DNA of 24,457 nucleotides from a virus. Its lineage: Duplodnaviria; Heunggongvirae; Uroviricota; Caudoviricetes. Positions 1-17,297 of the stretch are shown here, piece by piece (the first letter of the stretch is position 1; each line of letters opens with the position of its first letter). The DNA lies in the IMG/VR virus record IMGVR_UViG_2534681674_000009, one strand, 5' to 3'. A program made the position numbers and the translations under genes. The notes under the pieces are model-generated. The model made no database searches, was not told the DNA's origin, and saw only the letters and a list, made by a program, of their open reading frames with translations.

Positions 1-1943
<1,943 letters not shown>

Positions 1944-1963
<20 letters not shown>

Positions 1964-3263
1964 TCTCCCGCATATTGCCAGCATGGCTTTTAATGAGCCG
2001 CTGATGCTTGAACCCGCCTATGCGCGGGTTTTCTTTTGTGCGCTTGCAGGCCAGCTTGGGATCAGCCGCCTGACGGATGCAGTATCCGGCGACAGCCTGA
2101 CTGCCGGAGAGGCACCCGCGGCGCTGGCGTTATCCGGTGATGATGACGGACCACGACAGGCCCGGAGTTATCAGGTCATGAACGGCATCGCCGTGCTGCC
2201 GGTGTCCGGTACGCTGGTCAGCCGGACGCGGGCGCTGCAGCCGTATTCGGGGATGACCGGTTACAACGGCATTATCGCCCGTCTGCAACAGGCTGCCAGC
2301 GACCCGATGGTGGACGGCATTCTGCTCGATATGGACACACCGGGCGGAATGGTGGCGGGAGCATTTGACTGTGCTGACATCATCGCCCGTGTGCGTGACA
2401 TAAAACCGGTATGGGCGCTGGCCAACGACATGAACTGCAGTGCAGGTCAGCTGCTTGCCAGCGCCGCCTCCCGGCGTCTGGTCACGCAGACCGCCCGGAC
2501 AGGCTCCATCGGCGTCATGATGGCTCACAGTAATTACGGTGCTGCCCTGGAGAAACAGGGCGTGGAAATCACGCTGATTTACAGCGGCAGCCATAAGGTG
2601 GATGGCAACCCCTACAGCCATCTACCGGGTGATGTCCGGGAAACACTGCAGTCCCGGATGGATGCAACCCGCCGGATGTTTGCGCAGAAGGTGTCGGCAT
2701 ATACCGGCCTGTCCGTGCAGGCTGTGCTGGATACCGAGGCTGCAGTGTACAGCGGTCAGGAGGCCATTGATGCCGGACTGGCTGATGAACTTGTCAACAG
2801 CACCGATGCGATCACCGTTATGCGTGATGCACTGGATGCACGTAAATCCCGTCTCTCAGGAGGGCGAATGACCAAAGAGACTCAATCAACAACTGTTTCA
2901 GCCACTGCTTCGCAGGCTGACGTTACTGGCGTGGTGCCAGCGATGGAGGGCGAAAACGCCAGCGCGGCGCAGCCGGACGTGAACGCGCAGATCACCGCTG
3001 CGGTTGCGGCAGAAAACAGCCGCATTATGGGGATCCTCAACTGTGAGGAGGCTCACGGACGCGAAGAACAGGCCCGCGTGCTGGCAGAAACCCCCGGTAT
3101 GACCGTGGAAACGGCCCGCCGCATTCTGGCCGCAGCACCACAGAGTGCACAGGCGCGCAGTGATACTGCGCTGGATCGTCTGATGCAGGGGGCACCGGCA
3201 CCGCTGGCTGCAGGTAACCCGGCATCTGATGCCGTTAACGATTTGCTGAACACACCAGTGTAA
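1944..3263 (+). CDS. C: Prohead protease / minor capsid protein gpC
   Basis: GTG start at 1944 after RBS GAGGAGGA (1931-1938); 439 aa beginning (V)TAELRNLPHIASMAFNEPLMLEPAYAR, as in lambda C; overlaps the end of B in another frame. Confidence 0.93.
2658..3263 (+). CDS. Nu3: Scaffolding protein Nu3 (in-frame internal start within C, shared stop)
   Basis: In-frame ATG at 2658 (MDATRRMFAQKVSAYTGLSVQ...) sharing the C stop, giving the 201-aa nested product known from lambda; start inferred by homology, not by a strong RBS. Confidence 0.65.
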   Translation: MDATRRMFAQKVSAYTGLSVQAVLDTEAAVYSGQEAIDAGLADELVNSTDAITVMRDALDARKSRLSGGRMTKETQSTTVSATASQADVTGVVPAMEGENASAAQPDVNAQITAAVAAENSRIMGILNCEEAHGREEQARVLAETPGMTVETARRILAAAPQSAQARSDTALDRLMQGAPAPLAAGNPASDAVNDLLNTPV

Positions 3264-3272
3264 GGGATGTTT

Positions 3273-3605
3273 ATGACGAGCAAAGAAACCTTTACCCATT
3301 ACCAGCCGCTGGGCAACAGTGACCCGGCTCATACCGCAACCGCGCCCGGCGGATTGAGTGCGAAAGCGTCTGCAATGACCCCGCTGATGCTGGACACCGC
3401 CACCCGTAAGCTGGTTGCGTGGGATGGCACCACCGACGGTGCTGCCGTTGGCATTCTTGCGGTTGCTGCTGACCAGACCAGCACCACGCTGACGTTCTAC
3501 AAGTCCGGCACGTTCCGTTATGAGGATGTGCTCTGGCCGGAGGCTGCCAGCGACGAGACGAAAAAACGGACCGCGTTTGCCGGAACGGCAATCAGCATCG
3601 TTTAA
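3273..3605 (+). CDS. D: Head decoration protein gpD
   Basis: [27 protein letters not shown]...[10 protein letters not shown], near-identical to recalled lambda D (110 aa); ATG at 3273 chosen over 3267 by RBS spacing and lambda N-terminus. Confidence 0.95.
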
Positions 3606-3623: not shown

Positions 3624-3648
3624 GAGGCCGCCTGTGCGGTCTTTTTTT
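3624..3648 (+). terminator. Putative rho-independent terminator between D and E
   Basis: Stem GGCCGC / GCGGTC (one G.U pair) with CTGT loop, followed by a T7 run (3642-3648). Confidence 0.45.
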
Positions 3649-3661
3649 ACGGGATTTTTTT

Positions 3662-3937
3662 ATGTCGATGTACACAACCGCCCAGCTGCTGGCGGCAAAT
3701 GAGCAGAAATTTAAGTTTGATCCGCTGTTTCTGCGTCTCTTTTTCCGTGAGAGCTATCCCTTCACCACGGAGAAAGTCTATCTCTCACAAATTCCGGGAC
3801 TGGTAAACATGGCGCTGTACGTTTCGCCGATTGTTTCCGGTGAGGTTATCCGTTCCCGTGGCGGCTCCACCTCTGAATTTACGCCGGGATATGTCAAGCC
3901 GAAGCACTTAGCATGGCTTTCTGAGGCTTTCGTGTAG
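3662..3937 (+). pseudogene. E: Major capsid protein gpE, N-terminal fragment (interrupted after codon ~82 by the integrated element)
   Basis: MSMYTTAQLLAANEQKFKFDPLFLRLFFRESYPFTTEKVYLSQIPGLVNMALYVSPIVSGEVIRSRGGSTSEFTPGYVKPKH matches lambda E residues 1-82; after 3906 the frame reads 9 unrelated codons (LAWLSEAFV) and stops. Confidence 0.9.
3897..3906 (+). repeat. Left junction direct repeat (putative attL core) AGCCGAAGCA
   Basis: Identical 10-mer recurs at 16507-16516; phage-derived sequence ends here on the left and resumes there on the right. Confidence 0.65.
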
Positions 3938-4035
3938 TTGCTGGTTTTTACACTTAATCTTTTGATAATAAAGAATAAGTTTATCTGGTGCTTTCACTGA
4001 ATTTTCCTCGTTATCTGTGTGTTGCAATCATCTCT

Positions 4036-4055
4036 GTATTGCAGCTTGTATTGCT
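4036..4055 (+). repeat. Tandem GTATTGCAG / GTATTGC motifs (putative integrase arm-type sites, left arm)
   Basis: TGTATTGCAGCTTGTATTGC upstream of int; the same motif recurs in tandem at 16409-16432 near the right junction. Confidence 0.4.
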
Positions 4056-4231
4056 TTTTGGGGCTAAAAATGGCTGGCGAGAACAAACTGAGCGACAAAG
4101 CGCTTAAAGGATATCTGGGGAAACCCAGAGAAAAGCAGATCACCATTGCTGATGGAAAGGGGCTTTCTATTCGTGTGAGTACTAAAGGGTGAACCGCCCC
4201 GGGTTTCCTGGAGAGTATTTTATCTGTGAAC

Positions 4232-5122
4232 TCAGGCTGCCAGATCATTATTTCCGATGGAAGCATAATAAGCTTTTTCTGCTTCTGCCGGAGGAATATG
4301 GCCCAGCCTTTCCAGCAATCGTCGATTGTTATACCAGTCCACCCACGTTAGTGTGGCCAGTTCCACTTCTGTCCGGTTTTTCCAGCTATTACGGTGTATT
4401 ACCTCCGCTTTGTAAAGACCATTGATGCTCTCAGCCATCGCGTTGTCATACGAGTCGCCAGTACTCCCTGTTGATGCCAGTAATCCGGCTTCCTTAAGCC
4501 GCTGCGTGTAGGCCAGCGATACATACTGAGAACCTTTATCACTGTGATGGATTGTGCCGGACGGCCGACGGGCCCACAACGCCTGCTCCAGTGCATCCAG
4601 CACGAATGTTGTTTCCATGGATGATGAGACCTGCCATCCCACGATGTATCCGGCGAACACATCAATGATGAACGCCACATAAACGAAGCCCTGCCATGTG
4701 CTTACCCAGGTAAAATCAGCCACCCACAACTGGTCTGGACGTTCTGCCACGAACTGACGGTTTACGCGGTCGCATGCGGCAACGGCTTTCCGGCTGACGG
4801 TAGTGCGGACCTTTTTACCCCGGAGAACACCGGCAAGTCCCATAACTGCCATGAGACGTGCCACAGTGCATCTGGCCACTCTGATACCTTCCCGTAACAA
4901 CTGACGCCAGACTTTACGCACACCGTATACCTGGTGATTTTCATCGTATACGCGCTGTATCTCTTTCTTCAGCCAGTCATCGTGCTGCGCACGGGCACTG
5001 CGTTTATCCGGATGATGTCGCTGTTGCTGACAATGGTAATACGTTGACGGGGCAATATGCAGTTCGCTGCATACCGGTCCGACCCCGTACTGCTCACGCA
5101 GCTTATCCAGCAGTGGCATCAT
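4232..5122 (-). CDS. IS629-like transposase OrfB (DDE catalytic domain; normally made as OrfAB by frameshifting)
   Basis: [53 protein letters not shown]...[22 protein letters not shown]... matches recalled IS629/IS1203 OrfB. Confidence 0.9.
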
Positions 5123-5446
5123 TTTTCCAGAGGCGGTCGAACTCCGCCTTCGCAAAATAAGCGGAAGCCTGGCGAAGGATATCGTTACTGCGGCGCAGTT
5201 CACGATTTTCACGTTCCAGCTCTTTCAGACGCTGACGTTCAGCGCTGGTGAGCCCACCATCACCGCCCCCGGTATCCCGCTCATGCTGGCGAACCCAGAC
5301 ACGCAGAGTCTCCGGCGTACAGCCAATCTTTGGGGCAATGGAACTACGATTGCCGCCCACTGTGAGTCATATTCATCCTGACTTTCCAGAACCATACGAA
5401 TCGCCCGCTGACGGACTTCGGGGGAAAAACGAGTATTTTTAGTCAT
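5103..5446 (-). pseudogene. IS629-like OrfA, apparently frameshifted
   Basis: N-terminal [33 protein letters not shown] is in one frame (5225-5446) and the remainder [30 protein letters not shown]...[10 protein letters not shown] in another (5103-5360); junction near 5345-5350. Confidence 0.55.
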
Positions 5447-6620
5447 CCTGTTTACCTCTTTCTCAGGGAGTTTAGTCTCCAGGATTTCCGGGGCGGTTCA
5501 GGGGCTGTGAGCTTTGTTTTCTTCTACAGGTTAGCAGGTGGCCGGGCTGCTCCGGTCTGGCTAACGTTGGGTAAATATCCTGATATGTCACTCAAACAGG
5601 CAAGGGAAAAGCGCGACGAGTGCCGTGGTTGGTTGGCTGACAAACGTGATCCGCGTATCCAGATTAAGATTCAGGCTGAAGAACGCTTAAAGCCGGTTAC
5701 AGTGGAGGATGCACTAAATTACTGGTATGAAAATTACTGTAAGGTGCGTCGTAAAACTCATGCTGTAACGCTTGGCAGATTTCGAAAGCATATCTTTCCC
5801 TATATCGGTCATTTGCCCGTAAATGACACTCACCTATATGAATGGCTGGACTGTTTTGACCGAATTAAACGTAATGCACCAGTTATGGCGGCGTATGTTT
5901 TTTCTGACACTAAATTAGCTCTTCGTTTTTGTCGGGTACGCCAGTACGCGACGTGTGATGCTTTAAAGGATTTGCGCATGAGTGATGTGGGGCAGATTGC
6001 AGGTAAGCGGGATCGGGTTCTGGATGAAGCCGAACTCGGCCAGCTCTGGAAGGCAATTTTTGTCGAGCCTGATTTAAAACTAATGTCTGAATACACGCGA
6101 AAAATGTTTGTGCTTTGTACAGTATTTGGATGTCGAATGAGTGAAGCCCGATTATCAGAATGGAGCGAATGGAATCTCGAAAGTTGGGTTTGGACTGTAC
6201 CAAAAGATCACTCAAAAACTGGTGTTGAAATCGTCAGACCAGTACCTGAAATTCTACGACAGTGGGTAACGGATGTTCACGAAGAGACAAAACATACTGG
6301 TTATGTGCTGGGAAGTCTGCGAATTAGAGAAAGCGTAAGCAAGATTGGGGGGAAAATCGGTAAACGTTTGGGCCATGAAAAACAATGGTCACTACACGAC
6401 CTTAGAAGAACGCTATCTACTCATCTAAGTGATCTCGGTGTTGAATTTTATGTAGTAGAACAACTGTTAGGCCATGCGCTACCTGGCGTGGCAGGTGTTT
6501 ACAACCGGAGTAAGTTTATGGCTAAAAAACTGGATGCTCTGGAACTCTGGACTACATATCTCAATAGCATCGCAGGTGCTGATTCAAAAGTGACAATCCT
6601 CAAACAAAAGGTTGGTTAAC

Positions 6621-6848
6621 ATGAAAAAAATGGCAATTGTTGATAAAAAGGGTCTGGAGTACATTCCTAACATTGACCGAATGATCCGTGAGAAAGAATG
6701 TCGGGAGCTAACCACTCTTGCGAACAGCACACGCTGGAAGCTGGAGAAGGAAGGAAAATTTCCTAAGCGGATCAAGATTGGTTCCACTGCTGTTGCATAT
6801 CGTCTTTCAGAAGTGCAGGCATGGATTCGAGGTGAGTGGGTAGTTTAA
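6621..6848 (+). CDS. alpA: AlpA-like DNA-binding protein (putative excision/regulatory factor)
   Basis: Small basic ORF directly downstream of int with an HTH-like segment ECRELTTLANSTRWKLEKEGKFPKRIKIGSTAVAYRLSEVQAWI, typical of AlpA/Xis-like proteins next to P4-type integrases; ATG 6621 preferred over TTG 6612. Confidence 0.75.
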   Translation: MKKMAIVDKKGLEYIPNIDRMIREKECRELTTLANSTRWKLEKEGKFPKRIKIGSTAVAYRLSEVQAWIRGEWVV

Positions 6849-8676: not shown

Positions 8677-8834
8677 TGCAGGAAATCACATTACACGAAG
8701 CCGCTGAACGTGCGCACCAGACAGAAATTATTGCCGCCTTCTTGAGGTATACCCGAACAAAATTACAGATGCTGATATATCCGCACTGGCGAGCCTACTG
8801 GCGCGTCTTTCGGGAAGTGTCGCTAGTTTTTTGA
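8676..8834 (+). CDS. Small hypothetical protein (52 aa)
   Basis: ATG at 8676 overlapping the previous stop (TAATG), preceded by a strong RBS AGAGGTG (8664-8670); below the ORF-track length cutoff. Confidence 0.4.
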   Translation: MQEITLHEAAERAHQTEIIAAFLRYTRTKLQMLIYPHWRAYWRVFREVSLVF

Positions 8835-11164: not shown

Positions 11165-11400
11165 GGTTATCTACCTTGTCTACCTGACTGAAATAAAATA
11201 CTTTTATTTCAATGTATTAATGCAGGTAGATAACTATTTTTCACTGTCTACCTGTTATCTACCTTATCTACCCATTTTTGTAGACAGGTAAGGAGACGGG
11301 TAGAGATGAGGTAGACAGCTATTTGGGGCTGTCTACCTCCCTGAAACCCGCGCCATTACTGGCCTGATAACTAATCAGGTAGACAAGGTAGACAAGGTGG
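11165..11400. repeat. Iteron cluster (putative origin of replication)
   Basis: At least ten copies of (T/G)TCTACC / GGTAGAC in both orientations (e.g. 11168-11185, 11247-11273, 11280-11318, 11331-11337, 11377-11397) around an AT-rich block (11190-11222), directly downstream of the primase gene. Confidence 0.7.
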
Positions 11401-12365: not shown

Positions 12366-13406
12366 ATGGTTGATTTATATTCGCCTACCCAGCTTGTACA
12401 GGTGGTTAATGCTGTAGATGTACAAAAACAACTAAATGCGTTGTTTACCAGTTTGTTTTTTACTCGCTCGGTAATGTTTGAATCGCGCGATATTATTCTT
12501 GATACAATCGACGATCCAAATATCCCAATTGCAGCGTTTTGTTCTCCTATGGTGGGTAGTAAAGTTTCACGTGACGAAGGGTACGAATCAAAAACAATTC
12601 GTCCAGGCTATATGAAGCCGAAAAGCAGCATTGATCCAAATAAGTTAGCTGTGCGCCCTGCTGGTGTATCACCTGAGCAATACAATGCTTTTGGAGCGCG
12701 TAATATTAAAGTTAAACAGGCGATTGTAAATCAGGCTAAAGCTATTCGTGCACGTATTGAATGGCTTGCCGTTCAGGCAATCACAACGGGGAAAAATATC
12801 ATTGAGGGCGATGGTATTGAACGTTATGAGCTGGACTGGAATATTAAACCACAAAATATCATCACTCAGTCTGGCGGTGCTGAGTGGTCAGGTAAGGATA
12901 AAGAAACTTTTGATCCAAATGATGATATTGAGAGCTACGCAGAATTTAGTGAGGGCGTCACTAATATCATCATTATGGGCGGTAATGTATGGAAGAAATA
13001 CCGTTCATTCAGAGCGATAAAAGAGGCTCTGGATACCCGTCGTGGTTCTAATTCCGAACTGGAAACGGCCCTTAAAGACCTTGGTGATTCGGTGAGTTTT
13101 AAAGGGTATATGGGCGATGTTGCGATTGTTGTATACAGCGGGCGTTATACCGACGAGGACGGAACTGAAAAACATTTCCTTGATCCTGATTTGATGGTGC
13201 TTGGCAATACGGCTCTTCAGGGGATTGTCGCCTATGGCGGTATTCAGGATCCGGAGCTAATCCGAATGGGGCTGACTAAAGCCGAACTTGCACCGAAAAA
13301 CTATATTGTGCCTGGTGATCCGGCTATTGAATATGTGCAGACACATTCAGCACCACAGCCAATACCGGCCCGCATCAATCGTTTTGTTACCGTTCGCATT
13401 GGCTAA
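12366..13406 (+). CDS. Major capsid protein, lambda gpE homologue encoded by the element
   Basis: Start at ATG 12366 (RBS AAGAGG 12354-12359). Product aligns along its length with lambda E, e.g. ITQSGGAEWSGKDKETFDPNDDIESYA...RRGSNSELETALKDLGDSVSFKGYMGDVAIVVYSG vs lambda ITQSGGTEWSKRDKSTYDPTDDIEAYA...RRGSNSELETAVKDLGKAVSYKGMYGDVAIVVYSG; clearly a diverged paralogue, not a duplicate. Confidence 0.85.
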   Translation: MVDLYSPTQLVQVVNAVDVQKQLNALFTSLFFTRSVMFESRDIILDTIDDPNIPIAAFCSPMVGSKVSRDEGYESKTIRPGYMKPKSSIDPNKLAVRPAGVSPEQYNAFGARNIKVKQAIVNQAKAIRARIEWLAVQAITTGKNIIEGDGIERYELDWNIKPQNIITQSGGAEWSGKDKETFDPNDDIESYAEFSEGVTNIIIMGGNVWKKYRSFRAIKEALDTRRGSNSELETALKDLGDSVSFKGYMGDVAIVVYSGRYTDEDGTEKHFLDPDLMVLGNTALQGIVAYGGIQDPELIRMGLTKAELAPKNYIVPGDPAIEYVQTHSAPQPIPARINRFVTVRIG

Positions 13407-13415
13407 GGGGGAGCA

Positions 13416-13757
13416 ATGGCTACTCATTACACTGAACTCATGTCTGGCACTGAAGCACTGGTTACTACGCTGGGGATATTTTCAGCCAATAAAGGGGTAA
13501 TACCTGCGTTTACGCCACTGATGCAGGAAGATGCAACTGGTGCGCTAGTGGTATGGGATGGAACGAGCGCAGGCAAAGCGGTTTATGTTTCCGCTGTACA
13601 AATCGACACAGCGAAAAAAACACAGGCACAGGTTTATAAGACAGGTGTTTTAAATGTTGATGCTCTGAACTGGCCTGAGTCTGTAAGAGAACTGTCGGCA
13701 AAGGTTGCCGCGTTTGTTGGCTCAGGTATTTCTGTTCAGCCGCTGGCTCGTGTGTAA
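13416..13757 (+). CDS. Head decoration protein, lambda gpD homologue encoded by the element
   Basis: 113 aa; ...LVVWDGTSAGKAVYVSAVQ...YKTGVLNVDALNWPE...AAFVGSGISV parallels lambda D ...[19 protein letters not shown]...[15 protein letters not shown]...[11 protein letters not shown]; RBS AAGGGGGA. Confidence 0.8.
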   Translation: MATHYTELMSGTEALVTTLGIFSANKGVIPAFTPLMQEDATGALVVWDGTSAGKAVYVSAVQIDTAKKTQAQVYKTGVLNVDALNWPESVRELSAKVAAFVGSGISVQPLARV

Positions 13758-14194: not shown

Positions 14195-14340
14195 TCTGAC
14201 AGGCTACGGGGCGTCAGGCGCGCGGGTTTTCTCTATTTATGAGCATTTTAAGGGGACTGGTGGTGGTTTTGTTGTTCGCTATATCTGTATGAATAATAAG
14301 AGAAAAATACAATCAATACACCAACCTGAAACAGTAATTA
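14195..14340 (+). other. cos site (cosN plus cosB-like region) of the element
   Basis: GACAGGCTACGGGGCGTCAGGCGCGCGGGTTTTCTCTATTTATGAGCATTTT closely parallels recalled lambda cos GACAGGTTACGGGGCGGCGACCTCGCGGGTTTTCGCTATTTATGAAAATTTT; lies directly upstream of a Nu1-like gene as in lambda. Confidence 0.65.
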
Positions 14341-14353
14341 AGTTGTGGTATCA

Positions 14354-14896
14354 ATGAAATTACACCTGATGAACAAAAAAAACATGGCAAAAAGTTGCCG
14401 TGTAAGCGCCACTGCGTTCGATAAGTGGGGAGTGATTCCCGTCGAGCGTAAGGGCCGTGAGGCGTTCTATGATGTTGCCAGTGTAATAGATAATCGGGTT
14501 AACAATGCAATCAGCCAGATTACAAACGAAACGGGCGATATTGATGACGATGAACTTTTACGCGTCAGGATCAGATTACTGACAGCACAGGCAGAGGCGC
14601 AGGAGCTTAAAAACGAGCGCGAACGCGGCGACGTTATTGATACAGAGTTTTGTATGTATGTTCTTTCCAAACTGGCGAGTCAGATTTCATCTATCATGGA
14701 CAGCCTGCCGCTTACCATGCAAAGGCGCTTCCCACAGATGACTCCGGCTATGCTGGATGGACTTAAAAAGGAAGTGGCTAAAGCCTGTAATGCCAGTGCC
14801 GGCGTTGCTGACAACCTCCCACAGATACTGGCTGATTATCTGATGGAAAGTACAGGAAACGTACCGGATAAGTTGCAGCTGAATAAGGATAAGTAA
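14354..14896 (+). CDS. Terminase small subunit, lambda Nu1-like
   Basis: ...RLLTAQAEAQELKNERERGDVIDTEFCMYVLSKLASQISSIMDSLPLTMQRRFP matches lambda Nu1 ...RLTRAQADAQELKNARDSAEVVETAFCTFVLSRIAGEIASILDGLPLSVQRRFP; start codon uncertain (ATG 14354, 14369 or 14384). Confidence 0.8.
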   Translation: MKLHLMNKKNMAKSCRVSATAFDKWGVIPVERKGREAFYDVASVIDNRVNNAISQITNETGDIDDDELLRVRIRLLTAQAEAQELKNERERGDVIDTEFCMYVLSKLASQISSIMDSLPLTMQRRFPQMTPAMLDGLKKEVAKACNASAGVADNLPQILADYLMESTGNVPDKLQLNKDK

Positions 14897-14907
14897 CGTA
14901 GTACGCT

Positions 14908-15183
14908 ATGACTGAATCCGAACTACTGAAAGTAATCTGCTATGCTGGTGGAGTCAGCCACCAGCATGACGAACAGGCCACGCAGCCGGGCAGTGTCACC
15001 GCTGAAAATTACGCTCGTGTGGTTGCTGAGGTTATGTGGCGTGACGGTATAGAACTGAACGGACAGGATTGCTTAGTCATCCGCACCAAAGTGCTGGCTA
15101 TACTGGCAGCTAGGCGGAGGCAGGGACAACGCCAGAACGTTGCATCGTACCAGTGGAAGAAGCCTGACAGACTGCGGCGATAA
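14908..15183 (+). CDS. Hypothetical protein downstream of terS
   Basis: 91-aa ORF; no recognisable family; weak RBS. Confidence 0.35.
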   Translation: MTESELLKVICYAGGVSHQHDEQATQPGSVTAENYARVVAEVMWRDGIELNGQDCLVIRTKVLAILAARRRQGQRQNVASYQWKKPDRLRR

Positions 15184-15337
15184 CTCTTTGATTTTCTCGA
15201 CGGCCCCAAAATGGGCCTTACCATAGCCAGCTAATAAATGAGCAAGCCTCAAAAGTGAGGTTTGTGGCCGTTTGGCCTATTCATATGCTAACTCGTTGAT
15301 ATTCCTGACGACGCAAATTTACGCCTTGTGGCTGGTA

Positions 15338-15363
15338 GTCGAATTGCAAATTTGCAACTCGAC
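15338..15363. promoter_or_regulatory. 26-bp near-perfect palindrome (putative operator)
   Basis: GTCGAATTGCAAATTTGCAACTCGAC, self-complementary except one position pair; intergenic between the terS module and the Abi-like gene. Confidence 0.35.
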
Positions 15364-15585
15364 TATGAAACTACAGGTAGTTTGGGTAGTAAAAGCAACA
15401 CACTGATTTTGGGGCTTCTTCGCGATACCTAATATTATGGTATCGGTGGAAGAGATATCGTTTCTCATAGGTTAGCACCGAGGGCGGAGTTCCGCCCTCA
15501 TCGAAAAATTGCTTACGAGTCGTCAAAATAAATTAATCGACTGAGTATAATGATTAACTAATTGCTCGTGTTACTTCATTATACG

Positions 15586-16347
15586 TTATTTCCCATCTTT
15601 AAGGTTTAACCAAGTGTTAATTAAAAAAAGAGCCATTGAGCCTGATAAATTTACTGCAAGTTCGGCATGCCTTGGGGATGGCTTAATTGATGAGCTGTTC
15701 GTTCCATGTGCATCACCGAGTTTATTACGAAGAGTACCTAACCCATTTACAACTGCAGAACAACCGCCGAGAATTTGTTTGAAGATATTTTCAGTATGTT
15801 GGTCGGCAGATAGGTTAAGTTCTTTTGAAAGAGTTTTATAAAGCTCTGACATTTCAATATTTTTATTATTATACTGAATGCCCATATCATCAAGAATGTG
15901 TTTGCAAACTGTTTCAAGAAGTGTTCTTGCGGAGGTTATCGCACCATCCGGATCTGTATGGCGCCGTTCAAGTGCTTTTATCCAAACGGCGTGGACTCCA
16001 TCCTCGTTAAACTTTCTTAATACATCAGATATGTCTTCATCCGCTGGAGCTTTATTTTTCCCTTCTAGATAGTCCAGCATCGGCTGAAATGCCTTATAAA
16101 TCAAATCTCTCCGGGGGGCATACTTTTCAGTCTTTTTTATAAATCCCCAAAATTCTTTTAGTGAGCGATTAGTTCTCACAAACTCTGGTAATAGCTGATG
16201 TAAAGGAGGATTTTGTAAGAAATATGTTCTTAGAAGCAAATAATCATTATTAGCTTCATCCTGGGCTCCTGTAGCTCTTGCAATTAGTATGTTTTGAAGC
16301 GCTACTGCGCGCTCTAGGTCATTTTGAAGGGTATCTATAATATTCAT
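15586..16347 (-). CDS. Abi-like protein with HEPN-type Rx4-6H motif (putative abortive-infection / defence effector)
   Basis: 253-aa ORF on the opposite strand at the element's right end; C-terminal LGTLRNKLGDAHG contains R-x6-H as in HEPN/Abi_C family proteins. Confidence 0.55.
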   Translation of the reverse strand: MNIIDTLQNDLERAVALQNILIARATGAQDEANNDYLLLRTYFLQNPPLHQLLPEFVRTNRSLKEFWGFIKKTEKYAPRRDLIYKAFQPMLDYLEGKNKAPADEDISDVLRKFNEDGVHAVWIKALERRHTDPDGAITSARTLLETVCKHILDDMGIQYNNKNIEMSELYKTLSKELNLSADQHTENIFKQILGGCSAVVNGLGTLRNKLGDAHGTNSSSIKPSPRHAELAVNLSGSMALFLINTWLNLKDGK

Positions 16348-16408
16348 AACAAATCTTTATTCACTTCATTTGTGGGTTGATAATTGAATGGTTTGTACAT
16401 TGATTTCT

Positions 16409-16432
16409 GTGTATTGCAGTGTGTATTGCAGC
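16409..16432 (+). repeat. Tandem GTGTATTGCAG repeats (putative integrase arm-type sites, right arm)
   Basis: GTGTATTGCAGTGTGTATTGCAGC, same motif as at 4036-4055. Confidence 0.4.
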
Positions 16433-16506
16433 ATAGCCATTCAGGTAAAGATTATGCTCTATTTTTCCTCTTATATCATTCACATACTTACACCATTGAC
16501 TCATGT

Positions 16507-16516
16507 AGCCGAAGCA
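16507..16516 (+). repeat. Right junction direct repeat (putative attR core) AGCCGAAGCA
   Basis: Identical to 3897-3906; downstream sequence TGAGGTGAATCCGCAGATGACC continues lambda E. Confidence 0.65.
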
Positions 16517-17297
16517 TGAGGTGAATCCGCAGATGACCCTGCGTCGCCTGCCGGATGAAGATCCGCAGAATCTGGCGGACCCGGCTTACCGCCGCCGTCG
16601 CATCATCATGCAGAACATGCGTGACGAAGAGCTGGCCATTGCCCAGGTCGAAGAGATGCAGGCAGTTTCTGCCGTGCTTAAGGGCAAATACACCATGACC
16701 GGTGAAGCCTTTGATCCGGTTGAGGTGGATATGGGCCGCAGTGCGGCAAACAACATCACACAGTCCGGTGGCACGGAGTGGAGCAAGCGTGACAAGTCCA
16801 CGTATGACCCGACCGACGATATCGAAGCCTACGCGCTGAACGCCAGCGGCGTGGTGAATATCATCGTGTTTGATCCGAAAGGATGGGCGCTGTTCCGTTC
16901 CTTCAAAGCCGTCAGGGATAAGCTGGATACCCGTCGCGGCTCTCATTCCGAGCTGGAGACAGCGGTAAAAGACCTGGGCAAAGCGGTGTCTTATAAGGGA
17001 ATGTATGGCGATGTGGCCATCGTCGTGTATTCCGGACAGTACGTGGAAAACGGCGTCAAAAAGAACTTCCTGCCGGACAACACGATGGTGCTGGGGAACA
17101 CTCAGGCACGCGGTCTGCGTACCTATGGCTGTATTCAGGATGCGGACGCACAGCGCGAAGGCATTAACGCCTCTGCCCGTTACCCGAAAAACTGGGTGAC
17201 TACCGGCGATCCGGCGCGAGAGTTCACCATGATTCAGTCAGCACCGCTGATGCTGCTGGCTGACCCTGATGAGTTCGTGTCCGTACAACTGGCGTAA
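16507..17297 (+). pseudogene. E: Major capsid protein gpE, C-terminal fragment (codons ~80-341)
   Basis: (PKH)EVNPQMTLRRLPDEDPQNLADPAYRRRRIIMQNMRDEELAIAQVEEMQAV...EFTMIQSAPLMLLADPDEFVSVQLA, near-identical to lambda E from residue ~83; no in-frame ATG, upstream in-frame TAG at 16506-16508. Confidence 0.9.

Follow-up and report, generated by a model that had tools for sequence, protein, structure and literature searches.

An IS629-group insertion sequence splits the integrase gene of a helper-embedded satellite in a lambda-like prophage of Escherichia coli 97.0246

In E. coli 97.0246, mobile elements are nested in three levels: an insertion sequence (IS) lies inside a satellite, which itself lies inside a prophage. 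The window analyzed here (24,457 nucleotides) is the whole of draft contig AEZJ02000026.1, from an assembly of the 2011 era; the contig stops within the prophage, and the helper's chromosomal site is outside the window. In our reading, which as a whole we consider very likely to be correct, an IS629-group element of the IS3 family transposed into int at codons 40/41 of a PICI embedded in its helper (HE-PICI), of the E:Phage_cap_E:80 group, related to Eco567.11capE. That satellite lies in a lambda-like prophage, within gene E at codon 80; GGG was duplicated upon transposition, and full-length Int, the satellite's own excision, and the repair of gene E would all have been lost. What the sequence shows directly is where the IS begins and ends, which bases were duplicated, how the reading frame continues, what kind of IS this is, and which satellite it lies in, with the att sites of the latter. 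The IS and the satellite family are both already known, and the event is an ordinary IS insertion in an already described system. The window is thus a clean natural case of three-level nesting that reveals no new kind of element and no new mechanism.

The IS, an IS629/IS1203-type member of the IS3 family, occupies positions 4190–5500 (minus strand; 1311 bp), with its transposase genes antisense to int. It begins with TGAACC and ends with GGTTCA, and its inverted-repeat arms (4190–4230 and 5460–5500; 41 nt each) are 76 per cent complementary. In all 11 IS-free comparison loci, the alignment to the window runs to position 4189 and picks up at 5500/5501. The arms and the alignments fit the inverted repeats that an earlier note on this DNA had placed at 4190 and 5500. 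Each end of the IS is adjoined by a copy of GGG (left, 4187–4189; right, 5501–5503). The empty site in IS-free relatives, ACTAAAGGGGCTGTG, has four G residues versus three plus four in the window, and the target duplication is therefore exactly 3 bp, the clean GGG duplication that the earlier note had described.

The insertion leaves two int fragments, both on the plus strand. The 5' fragment (4070–4189; codons 1–40) is called as a 40-aa gene, and its stop codon, TGA at 4190–4192, consists of the first three bases of the IS. The 3' fragment (5504–6619) holds codons 41–411 and the stop codon (6617–6619), carries all catalytic residues, and is annotated in GenBank as a 370-aa protein that starts at GTG 5507. 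Conceptual excision of 4190–5500 together with one GGG joins the 40 codons of 4070–4189 to the 371 codons of 5504–6616 in frame, giving a protein of 411 aa in which the catalytic residues are kept. The in-frame join of the two halves had been anticipated correctly; the sizes given for it, 373 codons and about 413 aa, had not, and are replaced here by 371 and 411.

The restored DNA (1487 nt, flanks included) was used as a query against 5426 complete E. coli genomes; in 175 of them it aligned in one piece, with 100 per cent coverage and 99.7–99.9 per cent identity, which supplies the comparison with IS-free copies that had been suggested from the sequence. In every match listed, a truncated ‘major capsid protein’ gene adjoins the restored-int locus. 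Exactly the restored 411-aa protein also occurs naturally, on 29 contigs, and the shortened 370-aa product is found on contig AEZJ02000026.1 only. Among related loci from other genomes, which we retrieved via the satellite's 127-aa AlpA-like protein, int is intact and encodes 411 or 413 aa in ten out of ten. The int of the nearest relative (locus L011) differs from the restored int of the window by one base and is 99.6 per cent identical to that of the type strain, NRG 857C. Because the restored integrase is 100 per cent identical to natural intact proteins, with no decay since, the insertion is recent. With a one-piece match in 175 genomes and an IS that matches thousands of copies, chance is not an issue.

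An IS in the middle of a contig could also be an assembly artefact of a repeat-rich draft, with int intact in the real genome. The draft is of 2011-era quality and contains homopolymer indels, and the insertion is known from one contig only: the int/IS junction was absent when searched for in the 5426 complete E. coli genomes, and the protein look-up returned no second case. An artefact is nonetheless very improbable. A misjoin would not create an exact 3-bp duplication along with flanks that, in 175 other genomes, run on without a break, and the IS has a private variant at 5345–5348, which means that it is not a collapsed consensus. The insertion is real and precise.

Thousands of copies in E. 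coli match the IS, with 95–99.7 per cent nucleotide identity. Against copies of 1310 bp, from O26:H11 str. 11368 among other strains, its identity is 99.7 per cent; over its full length, it is 95.9 per cent identical to a copy in O157:H7 that is annotated as ‘IS3-like element IS1203 family’ and is likewise flanked by a 3-bp duplication (CTT). The orfB gene (4232–5119, minus strand) encodes a protein of 295 aa in which HTH_21, rve, and rve_3 are recognized; exactly this protein occurs on 70 contigs, in a cluster that includes an ‘IS629 transposase OrfB’ with 98.6 per cent identity. Domains detected in the IS are rve (DDE), HTH_21, and HTH_Tnp_1, and an ALIL frameshift-stimulating pseudoknot lies at 5048–5163 on the minus strand (Rfam RF01497; 115.7 bits). 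Nucleotide identity, OrfB, pseudoknot, and 3-bp duplication all bear out the initial description of the element as IS629-like. Like IS629 and IS1203 of EHEC and Shigella, it is about 1310 bp long, has TG...CA ends, inverted repeats, and a 3-bp duplication, and combines orfA and orfB, an rve (DDE) domain, and the signals of a programmed −1 frameshift, a slippery A-run and ALIL; it differs from them in its length of 1311 bp, in the +2 change that orfA carries, and in a slippery run shorter by one A.

The orfA gene (5103–5446, minus strand) is broken into two ORF pieces (5225–5446 and 5103–5360). Relative to the nearest full-length copy, it is interrupted after approximately 33 codons by the +2 change at 5345–5348, a variant for which the 5426 complete genomes hold no full-length place (best match listed, 97.3 per cent). 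The slippery A-run near 5121 is one A shorter than in the nearest full-length copy, a variant also seen in some other genomes. The internal defects of the IS, this loss above all, may be sequencing errors in the draft, since the draft's other indels, judged against 99.92 per cent-identical relatives, sit in short or long single-base runs. If the draft is accurate, the IS copy as sequenced would be non-autonomous: it would make neither OrfA nor OrfAB, and its transposase would have to be supplied in trans.

The restored reading frame has the domain layout of a P4-type tyrosine recombinase. Pfam places Arm-DNA-bind_3 (PF13356, DUF4102) at residues 7–93 (69.1 bits) and Phage_integrase at residues 213–377, along with SAM-like and central domains, and residues 17–98 align with two solved arm domains of the CP4-like kind, 3JU0 and 3JTZ. 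With the arm domain spanning 17–98 or 7–93, an IS at residue 40/41 splits the arm-DNA-binding domain. Identity to P4 Int is 28 per cent; the P4 alignment is usable for the N-terminal domain and poor over the catalytic region, and catalytic residues were placed with lambda Int instead. They are R251, K278 (in SKTG), H338 and R341 (in HDLRR), H364, and Y373, which align with R212, K235, H308, R311, H333, and Y342 of lambda Int. On this domain evidence (Arm-DNA-bind_3 plus Phage_integrase) and with a complete catalytic set, the restored ORF is assigned to the P4-type tyrosine recombinases, in line with the earlier note. It shares with P4 and CP4-like integrases the Arm-DNA-bind_3 (DUF4102) N-terminus followed by a tyrosine recombinase catalytic domain, but its target is a late gene of a phage, not a tRNA gene, and its arm motif is specific to HE-PICIs.

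The satellite is approximately 11.3 kb long, or 12.6 kb counting the IS, and its limits are set by features that all lie on the plus strand. The 5' part of the helper's major capsid gene E (3662–3906; codons 1–81; Pfam Phage_cap_E) ends in the attL core, a 10-bp identity block, AGCCGAAGCA, at 3897–3906 that is centred on gene E codon 80. An identical attR core lies at 16507–16516 and is followed by the 3' part of gene E (16517–17297). When 3662–3906 is joined to 16517–17297, the product is 341 aa long, and of its first 255 residues 250 agree with lambda gpE. A doubled TGTATTGC motif, presumed to be an arm-type site, is found at 4031–4054 (direct repeat, with a pattern match at 4035–4054), upstream of the int ATG, at a distance of about 132 bp from the centre of the core. 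A second one is found at 16410–16429, about 81 bp upstream of the attR core centre. The att cores, the gene table, and the restoration of gene E agree on the nesting first proposed for this DNA, of IS within satellite within prophage.

In the satellite, int is followed by an intact alpA (excisionase/regulator; 6621–6848, plus strand; Pfam Phage_AlpA), small genes, DUF4222, a primase (D5_N/DUF5906), SSB, a capsid E homologue (Phage_cap_E), a decoration protein (HDPD), an AlpA-like HTH protein, and variable cargo that includes a Nu1-like protein (Nu1) and an AbiJ/Abi_C protein. The satellite's own capsid homologue is 41 per cent identical to that of the helper, and the two decoration proteins are 39 per cent identical. 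A Bro-N domain was looked for among the satellite's genes and none was detected. The lambda cosN sequence, GGGCGGCGACCT, is absent from the window with up to one mismatch allowed, and the satellite's cos could therefore not be placed.

By gene content and attachment sites, the satellite is classed as an HE-PICI of the E:Phage_cap_E:80 group, which was described by Tommasini, Mageeney, and Williams (2023; PMC10111431). In HE-PICIs of this group, zones are ordered as integration (int, alpA), Bro, replication (primase, SSB), and late (capsid), and doubled TGTATTGC motifs flank the attP centre, 81 ± 2 bp away on its upstream side and 132 ± 2 bp away on its downstream side (PMC10111431). For E_Phage_cap_E_80 HE-PICIs, the part of the supplement available to us gives the block agccgaagca (PMC10111431), and the attL flank sequence of the window agrees with the E:Phage_cap_E:80 entries there; E. 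coli 97.0246 (AEZJ) does not appear among the entries of that part. The window shares with Eco567.11capE and the E:Phage_cap_E:80 group the site (codon 80 of the lambda gene E cognate), the 10-bp block (agccgaagca, corresponding to AGCCGAAGCA in the window), the doubled motifs at about −81 and +132, a gene order that runs from int and alpA through primase and SSB to the capsid and decoration genes, in the direction of the helper's late genes, and an int approximately 99.6 per cent identical to that of NRG 857C, as measured on the nearest relative. It differs from them in that int is broken by the IS and in that the attR-proximal cargo consists of Nu1-like and AbiJ-like proteins.

Excision on helper induction and helper-dependent packaging have been shown for Eco567.11capE only (PMC10111431), and both are predicted to be lost in E. 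coli 97.0246. The IS629-type transposition sets residues 1–40, which form the N-terminal part of the arm-DNA-binding domain, along with the ATG and the promoter region of int, apart from residues 41–411, and no full-length Int would be made. The satellite would then be unable to excise by its own means, and without its excision gene E would remain split. HE-PICIs carry no replacement copy of the gene that they interrupt, and the insertion should therefore also make the break in helper gene E permanent. The helper would then have no intact capsid gene in the region other than the satellite's 41 per cent-identical homologue; that the satellite capsid copy may serve as a backup has been suggested (PMC10111431). 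The satellite, and the helper's capsid gene with it, is thus probably locked in place. Both att cores, both doubled motifs, and alpA are untouched by the insertion, which makes int the only visible defect.

The same intact parts bear on a contrary reading, in which the satellite is not locked because Int activity comes from the 370-aa product or from a related integrase elsewhere, or because precise removal of the IS, by IEE and the IS629 transposase of other copies, regenerates int. Besides the att cores and the doubled motifs, alpA and the whole catalytic domain persist, the latter within the 370-aa ORF from GTG 5507. Read-through of the satellite by late transcription from the helper has been proposed (PMC10111431), and the int 3' fragment, with this ORF, may therefore be transcribed. 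Its product, however, would be without the N-terminal part of the arm-binding domain, which the IS splits mid-way. A promoter scan for sigma-70-like sites facing the 3' fragment returned none (a weak negative) and placed a single weak site upstream of int, at 3947–3976; on sequence inspection, the only element upstream of GTG 5507 is a poorly spaced AGGGG. Some complete E. coli genomes have this int in two places, so that a related integrase might act in trans. As to removal of the IS, IEE promotes transposase-dependent IS629 excision in EHEC (PMC9943667), and the 3-bp duplication permits exact restoration: were the IS to be lost precisely, along with one GGG, int would again be wild-type, with a product identical to functional-looking natural copies. 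Against this, the IS copy, as sequenced, makes no transposase of its own. On balance, we consider release of the satellite by any of these routes possible but unlikely, and retain the reading in which satellite and capsid gene are locked.

If they are, one ordinary transposition should have disabled two mobile elements, leaving the satellite without an integrase and the helper, for which restoration of the capsid gene depends on satellite excision, with that gene kept split. E. coli 97.0246 could then serve as a natural int-null HE-PICI control for the ‘regulated gene integrity’ model, and it could show whether the satellite capsid homologue replaces that of the helper. Inactivation of mobile-element genes by IS629 is routine in this group of strains. 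IS629 has been described as the cause of many gene inactivations (PMC9943667). The window resembles the IS629-inactivated prophage genes of E. coli O157 in that an IS629 insertion probably knocks out a gene of a mobile element and leaves the element immobile; it differs in that the target is a satellite within a prophage gene, with the capsid disruption probably fixed as well.

The position of the insertion raises the question of target bias or selection. When the 40-aa int fragment was used as a probe, it recovered three more contigs, on which the sequence ends in ...AAAGGGGC or ...AAAGGG. These were rejected as further insertions: they carry no IS sequence and merely end at int nt 120–122. 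Only contigs that end there give the exact 40-aa product, and such matches are therefore no evidence of insertions. A second IS-split int does exist, in strain E04, beside the IS629 target. This independent insertion, together with the AbiJ/Abi_C protein among the satellite's cargo, speaks for a reading in which the event was selected or target-biased, either because int codons 37–40 are an IS hotspot or because the host gains when the satellite, with its AbiJ-like cargo, is fixed in place and the helper is crippled. We find this reading improbable: there are two events only, the pattern was noticed post hoc, the three contigs reflect a look-up effect, and E04 is the only 1 of 179 complete genomes with this int in which the gene is IS-split, among the matches listed. 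Equally doubtful is a wider scenario in which IS insertion into int is a recurrent route by which a helper-embedded satellite is joined to its helper for good. What results would be either a domesticated island, dead but with its defence cargo preserved, or a chimeric phage obliged to build its heads from the satellite's own capsid and decoration genes, and int codons 37–40 would be a preferred IS target, since in two strains members of two IS families have struck less than 10 bp apart. The element in E04 is ISCro1, of the IS66 family, and its 8-bp duplication, TACTAAAG, at int nt 111–118 directly abuts the IS629 target at nt 118–120.

The same integrase gene (int) is also interrupted in Escherichia coli strain E04 (NZ_CM143912.1, locus 684–3510), in this case by ISCro1, a member of the IS66 family. 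The 8-bp duplication that accompanies ISCro1, TACTAAAG, occupies int nucleotides 111–118 and abuts the GGG target of the IS629-type copy in the window (int nucleotides 118–120). The two adjoining insertion sites may mark a local hotspot for insertion sequences within int, or else they may be a coincidence.

In the window, orfA of the IS629-type copy (5103–5446, minus strand) is frameshifted by a private +2 change at 5345–5348, and the slippery A-run at about 5121 (minus strand) is one base short. Judging from these two lesions, the copy itself looks dead. Its ALIL pseudoknot, the frameshift-stimulating element of the IS3 family, and both inverted repeats are intact, and the copy could therefore still be mobilized in trans.

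A related satellite, with an integrase of 413 aa (GCA_047844485.1, contig ABXVPD010000035.1, locus 1514–2755), has the same late-zone genes as the window satellite. It lies directly after gpW, at the expected place of the portal gene and not in gene E, and it is probably an HE-PICI of a portal-site group.

The window satellite encodes head proteins of its own, a lambda-E-type capsid protein of 346 aa and a decoration protein (12366–13757), which are 41 and 39 per cent identical, respectively, to those of the helper. At the site homologous to attB, the satellite capsid gene reads GAAGCCGAAAAGCAG; because this differs from the 10-bp att core in helper gene E, self-integration is unlikely.

Immediately 3′ of the primase gene, short direct repeats are clustered at 11166–11338. 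The cluster includes two copies, 88 bp apart, of a repeat that begins GTTATCTACCTT, as well as palindromic units of the form AGGTAGA...TCTACCT that are 85 bp apart; it looks like the replication origin of the satellite.

Compared with 99.92 per cent identical relatives (loci L011 and L014), the window has single-base indels at 3640, 8730, and 12170, all within single-base runs, short or long. The indel at 8730 cuts a small ORF to 52 aa (63 aa in the relatives). Homopolymer errors in the draft assembly probably account for all three.

Next to attR, the satellite ends in a variable cargo slot (14242–16494), which in the window holds a Nu1-like protein (14354–14896), an ORF of 91 aa, and, on the minus strand, an abortive-infection protein (AbiJ/Abi_C; 15586–16347). 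Despite the Nu1-like gene, lambda cosN (GGGCGGCGACCT) was not found at up to one mismatch in window positions 1–24457, a contig that begins past the cos region of the helper; for the related satellite Eco567.11capE (PMC10111431), a shared cos segment has been reported. In relatives, the slot contains HEPN together with GmrSD/DUF262, AF_1680, or DUF2971. Strain E04 additionally has a TIR-domain gene, which adjoins alpA and lies outside the attR-proximal slot.
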